Source: Thermoplasmatales archaeon SW_10_69_26
GTDB lineage: Archaea > Thermoplasmatota > SW-10-69-26
Assembly: GCA_003009755.1 (NCBI GenBank)
Contig: PXUB01000001.1
Span: 85,854 to 149,853 of the forward strand
Direction of reading: 5' to 3'
Length of the DNA stretch: 64,000 nucleotides
Shown piece after piece: positions 45,519 to 58,846 of this stretch. Within the stretch, counting starts at the first letter, position 1. Each line of letters opens with the position of its first letter. Below the pieces are notes generated by a model. It was not told the DNA's origin. It searched no databases and was given only the letters and a program-made list of their open reading frames with translations. The translations under genes and the position numbers were made by a program.

Positions 45519-48500
45519 TCAGGCTTCGGGTTCGGCGAGCGAGAGGACGAGGTCGCCGATCGTGGTCCAGCGGGCCTGGAAGCCGCCCTCGGGGGAGTGG
45601 ATGCAGGCGCTGTCGCCGGCGAGGTGGGTGACCTCGTAGGCCTGGGCCGGTTCCTCGAGCCCGGTGCCCAGGGCCTTGGCGGCGGCCTCCTTGAGCGTCC
45701 AGGCCAGCGTCTCACCGAGGGTGGTCTCGATCTCGGCGTCGGCCAGCATCGCCCGCTCGTCGCTGGTCAGGCTGTCCTCGCGCCAGGCGTCCGAGCGGTC
45801 CTCGATGCGTTCGAGGTCGATCCCGATCGGGCTCCCCTGGCGGGCGGCGGCAATCGCCAGGCCGTGGCCGTGCGTGATGGACACGCTGCCCTCGGCACCG
45901 TCGACGACCGGGCGCCCGTCGTCGCGGTCGAGGCTCGCGTCGTCGCCGAAGGCCTCCTGCAGGGTACGCTCGGCGGCGTGCGTGCCGGCCTCGCGTTCGG
46001 CCTCGCGCTTGCCGCGCGGGTCGCGGGGGTCGAGCACGTCGACGGGCTGGCCGCTGAGCGCGACGCCGTCCGGGGCGAAGCTCACCAGCTCGCCGGTGAC
46101 CTGCTGGTTGGCGTCGGTGCGTTGCAGGCGGAGGCCGCGCACGTGGACGATGGGCTCCTCGCCGTCTCGGACGGTGGCGTCCCAGGTGGAGCCGGTGGCG
46201 TCGGCGGCGACGAGGCGCGCGTCGACGCGCACCTGGCCCTGCCTGGGCGCCGCCTCGAAGCTCAGGGTCTTGATGCCGACGGGCAGCTGGCGGCTCTCGC
46301 GGGTGAGGCCGGCGGCCTGCATGGCGGCCTCGATGGCGAGCGCGTGCGGGGAGGCGCCGCCCACGGTCAGGTCGGCTTGGGCCCTGACGTGGTCCTCGCC
46401 GGGCCGGGCCCGCGTGAGGACCTGGAAGCTGGGCCCGTGGAACAGGCGCTCGTAGATCGCCTCGGCCGCGATCGGGTCGGTCTCGGGGTCGGCGCGGTCG
46501 ACGGGCTTGACACCGGGCCCGGGGCCGGCTCGGGCGCGGGCGTGCACGGTGTCGTTCTGGGTCACCTGCCAGGCCTCTCCGGTTGCCTCGACCCTGAGCG
46601 TGGTCGGCTCCGTGATCCAGGCGGGCTGGGTGAAGCCGACCTCGTGGAGGGCCTCGACGGGGCTCGCGTCCGGTGCGGTCGCCTGGCGGAGGGCTTGCAG
46701 GTAGCGGACGCCGGGTACGAGCGGGCGGCCGGCGACCTGGTGGTCGTCGAGGAAGGCTTCCTCGCCGGTGAGGTGGAGCTCGTCGGTCCCGGTGTGCGGG
46801 GTCCGGGGCTGCTGGTCGGCGACGAGGAAGGTGCCGGGCTGGGCGAAGGCGTCGGTGAAGACCTCGGCGCCTCGCTCGGGGGCGAGGAAGGTGACCTCGC
46901 GGTCCTCGAGCACGGCGCGCACGGTGTCGTCGTCGGCCATGCCGCCGGCGGCGTCCCAGGCGGTCCAGTGGATGAGGGTCCCGTCGACCGGGGCCAGCAG
47001 ACCGGGCAGGCAGCCGTTGGCGAGCGCGTAGTCGGCTTGGCCGGGGTTGCCGTAGGCGCCGGCGATCGAGCCGAAGGCGACGTGGTGGGCCTCGGGCAGC
47101 TCGTCGGTGAGCTTGTGCACGGGCGTGAGCTTGGTGTCGAGCACGAGCTGCATCTCGTCGCGGGTCTTGTCGGCGAAGCCGCGCGAGCGGTCCACGCCGA
47201 CGCCGTGCACGACGAGATCGATCGCGCCCCAGTCGTCCTCGACGGTGGCGACGACCTCGGCCAGCGCGTCACCGTCGGTCGCGTCGGCGCGGTGGTAGCT
47301 GGTCTCGGCGACGGCGGCCAGGGCCTGGTAGGCGTGGGCGCGGCGGGCCTTGCGGACCTCGCGTTGGACCCGTTCTTCGATCTCGGCGGGTGTGGGGTCC
47401 TCGCCGGTCCTCTGGGCCTCGGCGAGCATCTGCTCGCGCAGGTCCTGGATCTCGTCCTCGTCGTCGGGGTCCAGCTCGGGATCCACGAGGGGGCTGCGGC
47501 CGACGAGGGCCAGGCGGACCTCGTGGCGGTCGGCCAGCTCGGCCAGGCAGGGTTGCACGGCGGCGCCGAGGCCGCCGGGGGCGAGCACGGTGATCGGTTC
47601 CGCGAGGTCGAGCTCGGCCTCGGGGTCGGTGGGGGCCGGGGCCGGGCGTTGGCGCAGCGAGCCGTCGAGACGGACGTCCGTGGTCGTGTCGGCGAGGATC
47701 TCGGCGACGAGGGTCTCGTCGGTGACGTCCTCGCCGACGATCACGGCGCGGGCGTCGATCTCCTCGGCGCGCAGCGTGCCGGCCAGCGCCGGGAGGCCCC
47801 GGGCGGAGGCGTCCTCGCCGGCTGCGACGAGCACGGTGCGGGCCTCCTCGGGGACGTCTTGGAGGTGGACGAGGAGATCGGTGAGCGCCTCGGGGTCGGC
47901 CTCGGCGGTCACCGAGACGACGTGCAGGGGCGCGTCGGGGCCGTCGCTGGCGTCCCCCAGGCGGGCCTGCGTGGCCTCGGGCAGCGGGCCCTCGATCGTG
48001 ACCTGGTCGGGCTGGAGGGATCCCTCAGGGGGCTGGGCGGGTCGCCAGCGCCAGGCGGTGCGCTGGATCGCGTCGGCCTCGTGGTGGGTGTCGGCGGAGC
48101 CGTTCTCGGAGGCGGTGTCGGCGTCGCTTGCGGGGGTGCCGGCGTGCTCGGCGAGCAGGCGGGCGGCGTCGTCGACGGTCGGCACGTCAGCCAGACTCAT
48201 GCCCTCGATCGGCGGGATGCCCAGCTCCTCGCGCGCCTCGGCGAGCACCTCGGCCTGCTTGACCGTGTCCACGCCCAGATCGGCCTCGAGATCCATGCCC
48301 GGATCGATCACGTCCTCGGGGTAACCGGTCTTGCGTGAGACGAGGTCGACGAGCAGTGCCTCGACCTCGCTCACGTCGGGGCCGTCGGTCTCGGTCGGCT
48401 GGGTCCCGCTGGAGCCGTTGGTGCTGGCGGGCTCGGCCGCGGCTTCGTCGGCGTCGATGTCGGCCTCGCTGCTTCCGTTGGTCGTGGCACCGTCGGCGCC

Positions 48501-57034: not shown

Positions 57035-58846
57035 ATGTTCGATCGGGTGCTCGTCGCCAACCGGGGCGAGATCGCCGCGCGCGTCATCCGCACCTGCCAC
57101 GATCTTGGGATCGGCACGGTCGCGGTTCACGCCAGCGACGATCGGGCCCAGCCGCACGTCCGCCTGGCCGATCGGGCCGTCGACCTCGGCTCCGCGGGGC
57201 CCCAGGGCACCTATCTGTCGGGGCCTCGGCTGGTCGAGGCCGCCGTCGAGGAGGGCTGCGATGCCGTGCACCCGGGGTACGGGTTCCTCAGCGAGGACGC
57301 CTCGTTCGCGCGTCGCGTCGAGGAGGCCGGTCTGACGTGGGTCGGTCCGCCGCCGATCGCGTTGGAGAGCCTGGGCGACAAGGCGCGGGCGCTGAAGCTG
57401 GCCGAGGACCTGGGTGTCCCGACGACGCCCGGCAGCGACGGGTCGGTCGCCAGCGCCGAGGAGGCCCGCGAGGTGATCGCGGAGATCGGCACGCCCTCCG
57501 TGTTGAAGGCCGTGCACGGGGGCGGCGGCATGGGGATGCGGCAGGTCGACAGCCTGGACGAGGTGGAGACGGCCTTCGAGGAGGCCCGCCAGCAGGCCGA
57601 GGGCGCCTTCGGCTCGCCCGAGCTGCTCGTCGAGCGCTGGTGGGACGACCCCCGCCACCTGGAGGTGCAGATCGCCTTCGACCGCGAGGGCAACGGCGTG
57701 CACGTGTTCGAGCGCGAGTGCTCGGTGCAGCGCCGCCGCCAGAAGCTGTTGGAGGAGGCGCCGGCGCCCTGCGTGGACGAGGACCTGCGCGAGGAGATCA
57801 CCGGGTACGCCTTGGATCTGTGCGAGGCGGCCGAGGTCCACGCGCTGGCGACCGTCGAGTTCCTCTCCACCGACGAGGGGCCCGTGTTCAACGAGGTGAA
57901 CCCGCGCCTGCAGGTCGAGCACACCGTCACCGAGGAGATCACCGGCTACGATCTCGTCGCGTGGCAGCTGCGGTTGGCGGCCGGCGAGCCGCTGGTGGCC
58001 ACCCAGGACGAGATCACCCTCGAGGGGCACAGCATCCAGGCCCGCGTCAACGTCGAGGACCCGCTGGCCGGGTTCAAGCCGGCGCCGGGCCCGGTGACGC
58101 ACACCCACGTCCCCCAGGGCGAGGGCCTGCGCGTCGACCACGCGCTCGTGCCCGGCGGCGAGGTGGCCCCGCACTACGACAGCCTCGTCGCCAAGGTGAT
58201 CACCCACGGCGGGGACCGCGGGCAGGCGATCTATCGCCTGCGCGGCGGGTTGGCCGACCTGCGGGTCGGCTCGCGCCCGACGACGGCCGGGTTCCTGCGC
58301 TTCGTGCTCGACACCGACGAGGTCCGACGAGGCGAGATGGACACCGGGATCGTGGACGAGGCGCTCGTCGACGACTACCGGGCGATCGTGCATGCAGCGA
58401 TGGCTCGCCTCGTCGACGGCGTCACGAGCGGCGACCACGGCGAGGTGCGGCTGGACGGCCACGAGGCCGACTGGCAGCGCAAGGACGGCCAGGTGTTCGT
58501 CGCCGGCGAGGCCGTCGAGCCCAACGGCCAGCGGCTGGACCGCGCCCGCGTGCAGCTCGACGGCTACGTCTTCGAGGGGGAGGCCGCGCCCACGATCGCG
58601 CTCGAGACCGGTGCCGCGGCCCAGGACGAGGTCGACGTCGAGAGCCCGATCCCGGGCACGGTGGCCCAGATCCCCGTCGCACCCGGCGAGGACGTGCCGG
58701 AGGGCACGACGCTCGTCGTCGTGGAGGCGATGAAGATGAAGAACGAGATCGGCGCGCCGCGCGATGGGACGGTCGAGTCCGTCGAGGTCGCCGTCGACGA
58801 GGACGTCGACCAGGGCCAGGCGTTGGTGCGCCTGGACACGGAGTGA
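57035..58846 (+). CDS. Biotin carboxylase fused to biotin carboxyl carrier domain
   Basis: ANRGEIA, HPGYGFLSE, ERECSVQRR, RLQVEH and EAMKM motifs. Confidence 0.95.
   Translation: MFDRVLVANRGEIAARVIRTCHDLGIGTVAVHASDDRAQPHVRLADRAVDLGSAGPQGTYLSGPRLVEAAVEEGCDAVHPGYGFLSEDASFARRVEEAGLTWVGPPPIALESLGDKARALKLAEDLGVPTTPGSDGSVASAEEAREVIAEIGTPSVLKAVHGGGGMGMRQVDSLDEVETAFEEARQQAEGAFGSPELLVERWWDDPRHLEVQIAFDREGNGVHVFERECSVQRRRQKLLEEAPAPCVDEDLREEITGYALDLCEAAEVHALATVEFLSTDEGPVFNEVNPRLQVEHTVTEEITGYDLVAWQLRLAAGEPLVATQDEITLEGHSIQARVNVEDPLAGFKPAPGPVTHTHVPQGEGLRVDHALVPGGEVAPHYDSLVAKVITHGGDRGQAIYRLRGGLADLRVGSRPTTAGFLRFVLDTDEVRRGEMDTGIVDEALVDDYRAIVHAAMARLVDGVTSGDHGEVRLDGHEADWQRKDGQVFVAGEAVEPNGQRLDRARVQLDGYVFEGEAAPTIALETGAAAQDEVDVESPIPGTVAQIPVAPGEDVPEGTTLVVVEAMKMKNEIGAPRDGTVESVEVAVDEDVDQGQALVRLDTE

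Follow-up and report, generated by a model that had tools for sequence, protein, structure and literature searches.

A self-contained, putatively fatty acid synthase-like megasynthase with threonine-bearing carrier domains in a Thermoplasmatales archaeon

The DNA analysed here, hereafter called the window, is a 64,000-nucleotide stretch of Thermoplasmatales archaeon SW_10_69_26. It lies at the end of contig C1 (149,853 bp), of which it takes up the final 64 kb. C1 is one of the 49 contigs of a metagenome-assembled genome (MAG) of 2.82 Mb whose completeness is estimated at 95% and contamination at 2.2% (2.19%). In the labels used below, G000 is this genome, and L, P, f and X stand for loci, proteins, Thermoplasmatota families and metagenome runs, respectively. 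The subject of this work is a megasynthase gene encoding 3247 amino acids at positions 45519..55262 of the window (minus strand), together with the acyl-CoA carboxylase genes beside it. A first-pass annotation, made from the sequence alone, had picked out this frame and assigned to it enoyl reductase (ER), ketosynthase (KS), acyltransferase (AT), second KS, two acyl carrier protein (ACP), ketoreductase (KR), dehydratase (DH) and phosphopantetheinyl transferase (PPTase) domains. Coordinates and domain content were borne out by searches with Pfam and NCBIfam models, and one further, NMO-like domain was found at the N-terminal end.

All the domains of the synthase are encoded on the minus strand. 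The ER (residues 313-647, 53322..54326) is an FMN TIM-barrel of the FabK/PfaD-like type (Pfam NMO, 66.9 bits; FabK model TIGR03151, 99.2 bits). It is followed by KS1 (residues 671-1150, 51813..53252), in which the Pfam families ketoacyl-synt, Ketoacyl-synt_C and KAsynt_C_assoc delimit a core at residues 671-1070 and a C-terminal extension up to residue 1150; Cys873, His1007 and His1044 were assigned from sequence motifs. The AT (residues 1210-1481, 50820..51635; Acyl_transf_1, 151 bits) has FabD as its nearest model (TIGR00128, 210 bits) and bears the motifs GHSLGE and AAFHS, which are of the malonyl type, as is the motif HAFH. KS2 (residues ~1560-2130, 48873..50585) and the two ACPs come next. 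The KR (residues 2560-2757, 46992..47585; Pfam KR, 60.3 bits) aligns to positions 2000-2254 of the PfaA model, the PKS-type DH (residues 2830-3052, 46107..46775; Pfam PKS_DH_N and PS-DH) carries the motif HxxxGxxxxP at residue 2841, and the protein ends in an Sfp-type PPTase (residues 3085-3239, 45546..46010; Pfam ACPS, 42 bits; EntD model, 37 bits). All the activities of a type I fatty acid synthase (FAS), namely KS, AT, ACP, KR, DH and ER, are present with their catalytic motifs. A PDB sequence search with the synthase gave generic polyketide synthase (PKS) KS-AT matches only, and the ESM Atlas gave generic PKS clusters only.

KS2 matches the NCBIfam model FabF (135.8 bits) and a ketoacyl-synt stretch was found near residue 1817. 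It is FabF-like across its C-terminal two thirds, with a core at residues ~1797-2076 and the residues Cys1821, His1969 and His2009. This Cys-His-His triad was invariant in 117 of 117 aligned homologues, which rules out the assignment of KS2 as a chain-length factor. As judged from its sequence, KS2 is a second active condensing enzyme, predicted to share the single AT with KS1.

The region before the ER (residues 1-300, 54363..55262) had been overlooked in the first-pass annotation. It is modelled here as a degenerate second FabK/NMO-like TIM barrel that has lost the ER-type GGH motif. The Pfam NMO match was under the cut-off (E=7.9e-5), and comparison with the ER domain by hhalign gave E=8.6e-4 at a probability of 23.5%. 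In the AF2 structure model (pLDDT 64.6 overall but under 50 for the C-terminal third) strands and helices alternate, and the top Foldseek matches were NMO and FabK structures, with E values of 2e-9 to 1e-8 and TM scores of ~0.45. The NMO-like domain precedes the ER in 20/20 ER-bearing homologues. A hidden thioesterase or acyltransferase in this region was ruled out by the evidence for the barrel, of which the structure model is of moderate quality only.

The two carrier domains depart from the usual attachment site. ACP 1 (48519..48719; PP-binding, 31.6 bits; motif DLGVDTVK) and ACP 2 (48153..48356; PP-binding, 32.1 bits; motif DLGVDTVK) are encoded by repeats of 264 nt each (48494-48757 and 48131-48394, respectively) that are 89% identical. 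Thr2212 of the former (codon 48627-48629) and Thr2333 of the latter (codon 48264-48266) align with the phosphopantetheinylated Ser of solved ACPs. According to the textbook rule, carrier proteins are armed on Ser, and the carrier domains known to us all have serine at this site. With Thr at both attachment sites, the description of the enzyme as ACP-dependent is provisional. With that position left free, the motif pattern gave 355 matches among the homologues, and Thr was found in 347 of these, a count that includes the two ACPs of the window twice. Ser was found in 2/355, both in an extra carrier (ACP') of two bacterial proteins (P0087 and P0112), and the remaining 6/355 are probably chance matches outside ACPs. 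The carrier motif of the family is DLG[IV]DTVKQAE. No Thr-bearing ACP was found described in the open-access full-text literature searched, the motif itself included.

Replacement of the canonical Ser in both ACPs could mean that the carriers are never armed and that the enzyme is a dead relic. We give this explanation only a slim chance, since Thr is kept across archaeal and bacterial homologues of ~40-45% identity although Ser is one base change away, all the catalytic motifs checked (including the KS2 triad) are intact, and the 9.7-kb frame is open, with a host-like codon bias, and remains intact in relatives.

In genome-wide profile searches of G000, no PP-binding domain, ACPS domain or true KS domain turned up outside the synthase. 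The system thus appears closed and self-sufficient and, if the enzyme works, the arming of its Thr carriers must fall to its own PPTase, as no other PPTase was found in G000. Dedicated PPTase genes were sought near bacterial homologues without the fused domain, and tblastn gave a PPTase region in some of these loci only.

Variants of the carrier arrangement were observed elsewhere. Some bacterial members (L015, L016, L041, L042, P0030, P0037, P0051, P0062 and others) have an extra carrier between AT and KS2 with the motif DLGIDTVRQAE, and in P0087 and P0112 this extra carrier alone has the canonical Ser. The extra ACP' suggests that the architecture may derive from two modules, KS1-AT-ACP' and KS2-ACPn-KR-DH. 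Two loci of family f2 (L051 and L054, of genomes G006 and G019) and the uncultured archaeon L028 have an additional ACP upstream of KS1, a FabI gene farther upstream and no fused ER. A stand-alone PP-binding open reading frame (ORF) of 85 amino acids lies beside a weak PF01553 match in the Thermoplasmatota genome G039 (C26:3842-4453), which has no synthase match. Genome G018 (f2) has ten PP-binding matches of 52-65 bits in large ORFs on contigs other than that of the synthase; these resemble additional nonribosomal peptide synthetase or PKS genes, or contamination (the MAG is 87% complete, with 4% contamination).

The synthase is linked to a carboxylase. A gene for an acyl-CoA carboxylase carboxyltransferase (CT) of the 12S/PccB type (55276..56922, minus strand; Carboxyl_trans, 586.7 bits) stops 13 bp short of the synthase ATG, and a biotin carboxylase-biotin carboxyl carrier protein fusion gene (BC-BCCP; 57035..58846, plus strand; CPSase_L_D2, Biotin_carb_N/C and Biotin_lipoyl) diverges from the CT gene across a spacer of 112 bp. 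Coordinates and Pfam matches agree here with the first-pass annotation, and its core idea of a self-contained, carrier-dependent synthase, here of type I, with its own carboxylase is supported. There are three CT and three BC genes in G000, and this is the only co-located pair. The linkage recurs at L012, L013 and archaeon L017 and in families f2 (G006, G008, G019) and f28 (G054), and a BC(-BCCP) gene lies just downstream of the synthase homologue in 14 of 30 bacterial loci.

The MAG consists of 49 contigs with 2.19% estimated contamination, and the closest characterised relatives of the synthase domains are bacterial, which would speak for an artefact in which a bacterial contig or a chimeric join had been binned into an archaeal genome. 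The closest homologous loci share 62-65% identity and come from MAGs that bear the label 'uncultured Thermoplasmatales archaeon'. L012, a locus of a same-family MAG, has BC, CT, synthase and Ogt in the order seen in the window, and L013, likewise of a same-family MAG, whose contig stops inside KS2, has BC, CT and the synthase up to that point. The GC content is 68-70% across all contigs of G000; the GC3 (GC at third codon positions) of the synthase frame is 0.94, similar to that of the adjacent genes, and both values agree with the remaining genome. An archaeal 16S rRNA gene is found on contig C38 (1497.8 bits), and the archaeal gene aNOP56 lies within the window at 13410-14816, ~30 kb from the synthase on the same contig.

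DNA of the window was also present in halite metagenomes from two studies, with word shares of 0.94 (X1) and 0.34-0.52 (X2-X5). Junctions were compared in runs X1-X4, X5 (share 0.34, study P2) contributing its word share, and runs X6-X14 (soil and halite; word shares of 0.06-0.07) were left out. Contigs of X1 span the Ogt/synthase junction with zero differences, and contigs of the second study (~95-99% alike) span the Ogt/synthase (records 17 and 27), synthase/CT (records 21 and 30) and CT/BC (record 14) junctions. These bridging contigs, the synteny with L012 and L013, the host-like GC3 and the archaeal markers make a chimeric or contaminant origin of the locus very unlikely, to the point of being hardly credible, all the more as the synthase is present in 5/5 same-family genomes and the gene order recurs in MAGs from other assemblies. 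A chimeric contig was thus ruled out by the syntenic MAGs, aNOP56 and the junction-spanning contigs, and the archaeal host named in the first-pass annotation is confirmed. The synthase protein is acidic (D+E 19%, K+R 7%), a composition consistent with its occurrence in halite metagenomes. The GC content of 70% and the acidity of the protein had first raised the suspicion of a haloarchaeon, an origin ruled out by the Thermoplasmatales-labelled relatives. The halite strains of the second study have small insertions at 45513-45520 (in the 23-bp Ogt/synthase spacer) and at 44951-44961 (upstream of Ogt), and their coding regions are ~95-99% alike.

The distribution of the synthase was analysed with the KS-AT region as query. 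Strong matches (E<1e-20) were obtained in 23 of the 61 Thermoplasmatota genomes, among them all five of the same family (open frames of 1505-3377 amino acids, several cut by contig ends) and 9/9 of family f2; the other 38 had no strong match, three of these giving weak, thiolase-level matches only. With the KS2 region as query, 3003 candidates of 1785-5683 amino acids were scored, and 2344 of them matched at E<=1e-3. The named archaeal homologues belong, by their MAG labels, to Thermoplasmatota, the Asgard group, Heimdallarchaeota, Thorarchaeota, Bathyarchaeia and Euryarchaeota, and the named bacterial ones to Myxococcota, Deltaproteobacteria, Actinomycetota, Leptospiraceae, Bradymonas sediminis and Virgisporangium ochraceum. 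More than 40 loci share the collinear architecture KS1-AT-(ACP')-KS2-ACPn-KR-DH-(PPT). The synthase is accordingly assigned, on domain order and motifs, to an unnamed cross-domain family, KS-AT-KS-(Thr-ACP)n-KR-DH, which is defined here.

A KS1 tree of 156 rows was built with FastTree, in which 29 rows carry archaeal names, 37 carry bacterial names and 90 carry none; 5 of the 120 P proteins were dropped as they had no KS1 match, and loci L003-L011 were omitted as short duplicates. The window synthase and L012-L014 form one group (support 100), which is nested in a clade of 18 rows (support 95), 11 of them archaeal and 7 unnamed. The remaining named archaea are placed together in a group of 51 rows (support 94), and both archaeal groups are free of the 37 named bacterial rows. 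Being unrooted, made by a fast method and sampled by similarity to the query, the tree shows clustering and not the direction of transfer. The long residence proposed in the first-pass annotation is supported by this archaeal clade, by the 5/5 family genomes, by the gene order kept in L012 and by the host-like GC3. To our knowledge archaea generally lack ACP, and the first-pass annotation had stated that they generally lack ACP-based FAS and PKS systems; this rarity was overstated, given the 23/61 Thermoplasmatota genomes and the MAGs labelled Asgard, Bathyarchaeia and Euryarchaeota.

Enoyl reduction is provided in two ways within the family. The fused FabK-type ER occurs in the G000 synthase and in homologues labelled Asgard and Bathyarchaeia. 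In 6/9 other Thermoplasmatota loci (G006, G008, G019, G025, G036 and G054) a full-length FabI-type gene lies immediately upstream of the synthase (Pfam adh_short_C2, 234-248 bits; the top twelve NCBIfam matches are all FabI models, each under its strict cut-off). FabI was not found in the loci of G011 (where the contig stops 1.7 kb upstream), G037 and G047, and the G000 genome has no FabI homologue. That enoyl reduction is retained through two unrelated enzymes, a fused FabK-type domain or a neighbouring FabI-type gene, argues for full saturation of the chain as the function under selection. This conserved reduction leads us to read the synthase as an iterative, fully reducing, type I FAS-like megasynthase with its own malonyl-CoA supply, a reading to which we give a probability of roughly 60%.

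No thioesterase domain was found in the synthase, and neither PF00975 nor PF01643 gave a match over the cut-off anywhere in G000, in agreement with the first-pass annotation, which had seen none; there was a single sub-threshold hot-dog-like match on contig C20. G000 has three PF01553 (PlsC-type) acyltransferases, on contigs C1, C42 and C25. The one on C1 overlaps the start of a full GpsA gene (C1:57729-59569), ~72 kb from the synthase and outside the window; this GpsA has the domains NAD_Gly3P_dh_N, NAD_Gly3P_dh_C and a bacterial GPD C-terminal domain. At least 12 related genomes, from families f1, f2, f5 and f6, have PlsC and GpsA paired in this way, as far as coordinates show, and neither PF01553 nor PF07479 was found in four control archaea. 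In the 61 Thermoplasmatota genomes, PF01553 was present in 23/23 synthase-positive and in 3/38 synthase-negative ones, and 18 of the 19 GpsA-positive genomes have the synthase. Families f1, f2, f6, f11 and f28 have synthase, PlsC and GpsA, and 19 families have none of the three. Since related genomes are not independent, this co-distribution is a pattern and not a statistic.

Taken together, these data suggest the following route. The BC-BCCP and CT would carboxylate acetyl-CoA to malonyl-CoA. The fused PPTase would first arm the two tandem carriers, and the single AT would load malonyl units on both. KS1 and KS2, both apparently intact in their catalytic residues, would extend the chain, with the work probably split by chain length, and KR, DH and the FMN-type ER would fully reduce each beta-keto group to give a saturated long acyl chain. 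The chain would most likely be handed directly to PlsC-type acyltransferases, one of them in an operon with GpsA, with glycerol-3-phosphate (G3P) or lysophosphatidic acid as acceptor. The outcome would be ester-linked acyl-glycerol lipids beside the archaeal isoprenoid ether lipids. The observations behind this route are the domain content, the intact catalytic motifs, the linkage of the genes, their phyletic co-distribution and the archaeal residence of the locus; from these we infer full reduction, chain length, the hand-over to PlsC and the arming of the carriers on threonine. That the saturated chains end in ester-linked glycerolipids is a tentative proposal, possible but one on which we would not rely.

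Several points weigh against this route. Two KS and tandem ACPs are typical of polyunsaturated fatty acid (PUFA) and secondary-lipid synthases and not of a housekeeping FAS, and the best model is PfaA. CT models of this type cannot separate acetyl-CoA from propionyl-CoA as substrate. Canonical PPTases are not known to accept Thr (E. coli ACP S36T), which casts doubt on the predicted arming of the Thr carriers. The connection of the synthase with PlsC and GpsA comes from co-distribution, as the PlsC-GpsA pair is ~72 kb away and the cluster holds no release enzyme, and this co-distribution has exceptions: GpsA is missing from f12 and f20, in which synthase and PlsC are found, f5 (one genome, G010, 89% complete) has PlsC and GpsA but no synthase match, and f22 and f25 (G039 and G046) have PlsC alone. 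The literature searched gives no product chemistry for any member of the family.

Some of these points would fit a secondary-lipid or polyketide synthase. Instead of bulk membrane fatty acids, its product would be a more specialised long chain, for example a hydrocarbon, a chain with some unsaturation or, as when heterocyst glycolipids are made, a glycolipid alcohol or polyol. PfaA is the best-scoring model (682 bits), and the tandem ACPs, the two KS and the PKS-type DH are like those of PUFA and Hgl systems; an ESM Atlas cluster named for enediyne PKSs was hit at 0.87, five synthase-positive genomes lack GpsA, and published surveys class such archaeal loci as type I PKS (T1PKS) or HglE-KS, as far as their available passages go (PMC10304266; retracted paper PMC10434046). 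This explanation has to contend with the complete reducing set, in which the two unrelated means of enoyl reduction argue that saturation is selected; with a protein that has no FabA-type isomerising DH and no thioesterase, reductase or cyclase domain, in a conserved block without tailoring genes; and with the tight co-occurrence with PlsC. We consider it rather unlikely, albeit a serious alternative.

Bacteria and mitochondria make lipoate from octanoate that is bound to ACP, and as the sole ACP system of G000 the synthase might instead supply a short acyl chain for cofactor or protein modification, such as octanoyl for lipoate or the acyl groups of lipoproteins. A dedicated third carboxylase set, two KS and tandem ACPs would be heavy machinery for a trace product, and the synthase is absent from most of the Thermoplasmatota families searched (38/61 genomes), which leaves this explanation a low probability.

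The lipid divide separates archaea, with isoprenoid ethers on glycerol-1-phosphate (G1P), from bacteria and eukaryotes, with fatty-acyl esters on G3P. It is a central puzzle of early evolution and of the origin of eukaryotes, and the locus described here bears on it. As geranylgeranylglyceryl phosphate synthase is present in G000, isoprenoid ether lipids are presumably still made. The model NF002022 for G1P dehydrogenase (EgsA) had no match in this 95% complete genome, whose sole Fe-ADH_2 (PF13685) match (C3:28180-29433) is a generic iron alcohol dehydrogenase. Full EgsA is present in all five family relatives, which points to an assembly gap, and a loss of the enzyme in G000 was dropped. EgsA was also not found in f11 (G025 and G036) or in f28 (G054, a single-contig genome). 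Archaea of Marine Group II (MGII) have been reported to lack G1P dehydrogenase in the available passages of PMC6461757. The presence of GpsA and PlsC in MGII and Lokiarchaeota has led to the proposal that they make mixed membranes (Villanueva et al., as cited in the available passages of PMC6962369 and PMC6461757).

We know of no dedicated fatty acid synthase pinned down for MGII or Lokiarchaeota. The present locus could be cloned as a concrete candidate for a de novo FAS of archaea, one that would need no ACP, PPTase, ER or malonyl-CoA supply from the host; it is co-distributed with PlsC and GpsA in Thermoplasmatota and occurs also in MAGs labelled Asgard and Bathyarchaeia. The family-wide Thr in turn challenges the rule that carriers are armed on Ser. 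In its widest form the proposal is that the family uses a so far undescribed carrier chemistry, with phosphopantetheine or another arm on Thr and a co-evolved, often fused PPTase, and that it is the missing de novo FAS of the predicted mixed ester/ether membranes in Thermoplasmatota (including the marine groups) and in Asgard relatives. This double claim is speculative and, at present, doubtful; were it true, ACP-dependent fatty acid synthesis would be long-standing inside Archaea rather than a sporadic import from bacteria.

The existence of such archaeal genes has been catalogued before, which tempers the novelty. In the available passages of published surveys, T1PKS is the second commonest class of biosynthetic gene clusters in marine archaeal genomes (PMC10304266), and T1PKS and HglE-KS are listed for Poseidoniaceae (retracted paper PMC10434046). 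The passages available of both count cluster classes only and describe no architecture, Thr-ACP, carboxylase or FabI linkage or co-distribution with PlsC and GpsA. In the open-access full-text literature searched, neither the architecture nor a link of an archaeal megasynthase with PlsC and GpsA was described. What appears to be new is the family-wide Thr carrier site, the KS2 triad, the FabI gene upstream where the ER is not fused, the sole ACP and PPTase, and the co-occurrence with PlsC and GpsA, all read from sequence.

The remaining neighbourhood was also analysed. The neighbours of the synthase in the window are the carboxylase genes, Ogt, PurK and similar genes, and the conserved block comprises CT, BC and Ogt only. 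Further conserved neighbours were sought by all-against-all ORF clustering, which was swamped by shadow ORFs in the high-GC DNA; the FabI gene and the carboxylase were all that it gave. Neither the ORF at 58861-60507 nor that at 59727-61067 had a Pfam match or a counterpart in the syntenic loci L012 and L013, and a PIN-domain gene (60573-60983, minus strand) lies beside the 1.7-kb stretch 58861-60570, whose long ORFs likewise lack both. Between 24000 and 38000 (~24-37 kb), 8 kb from the synthase locus, the window has an island of 55-63% GC, compared with ~70% elsewhere, which consists mostly of ORFs without a Pfam match. It contains a weak DNA-methylase match (32909-34306), a weak phage-integrase match (36138-37100) abutting a tRNA-Glu gene (37082-37156) and a tRNA-Ser gene (37845-37929), and it resembles an integrated element or provirus. 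The earlier remark that mobility genes are absent is therefore valid for the locus but not for the whole window.

Finally, the synthase was compared with known systems. The T1PKS and HglE-KS clusters of the surveys (Poseidoniaceae) probably represent the same protein family; synthase homologues occur in f11 and f28, families in which G1P dehydrogenase was not found, as reported for MGII (PMC6461757, as far as its available passages go).

The enediyne PKSs (PKSE; SgcE and CalE8) are likewise iterative type I enzymes with a C-terminal KR-DH-PPTase and thus their own PPTase, and an ESM Atlas cluster automatically named 'putative enediyne polyketide synthase' was found at a cosine of 0.87. A PKSE has one KS, one ACP and no ER, its polyene being released by a hot-dog thioesterase. 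The window synthase, in contrast, has an ER, KS2 and tandem Thr-ACPs, and no enediyne cassette genes are found at the locus.

With the type I FAS of fungi and of the Corynebacterium-Mycobacterium-Nocardia group of bacteria, the synthase would share a self-contained de novo system with an FMN TIM-barrel ER, an integrated PPTase and iterative full reduction. No sequence model of that type in Pfam or NCBIfam matched it, and it differs in domain order and lineage, those enzymes having malonyl/palmitoyl transferase and AT pairs, a single KS and a Ser-ACP.

The PUFA synthases come closest. The likeness to Pfa and Hgl systems noted in the first-pass annotation is upheld in that PfaA (TIGR02813) is the best NCBIfam match and that KS-AT, tandem ACPs, KR and PKS-type DH are arranged as in PfaA, with an FMN TIM-barrel ER of the FabK/PfaD type and an Sfp-type PPTase; the ACP motif D-x-[IV]-K-x-x-E also resembles the PUFA ACP motif. 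It does not extend to membership, which fails on four counts: the score (682 bits in four stretches, the cut-off being 1010.1), the FabA-type DH, the active KS2 in place of a chain-length factor, and the Thr-ACPs. No FabA-like domain was present among the 15 Pfam families of the synthase protein, although no genome-wide FabA search was made. The FabA-type DH/isomerase domains of PfaC are therefore lacking in the protein, and with them the source of cis double bonds. Whereas the PUFA systems have a KS and chain-length factor pair on another protein, KS2 of the window synthase is predicted to be active and lies between AT and the ACPs, and the ER and PPTase are fused to it, its carriers bear Thr and a carboxylase is linked to its gene.

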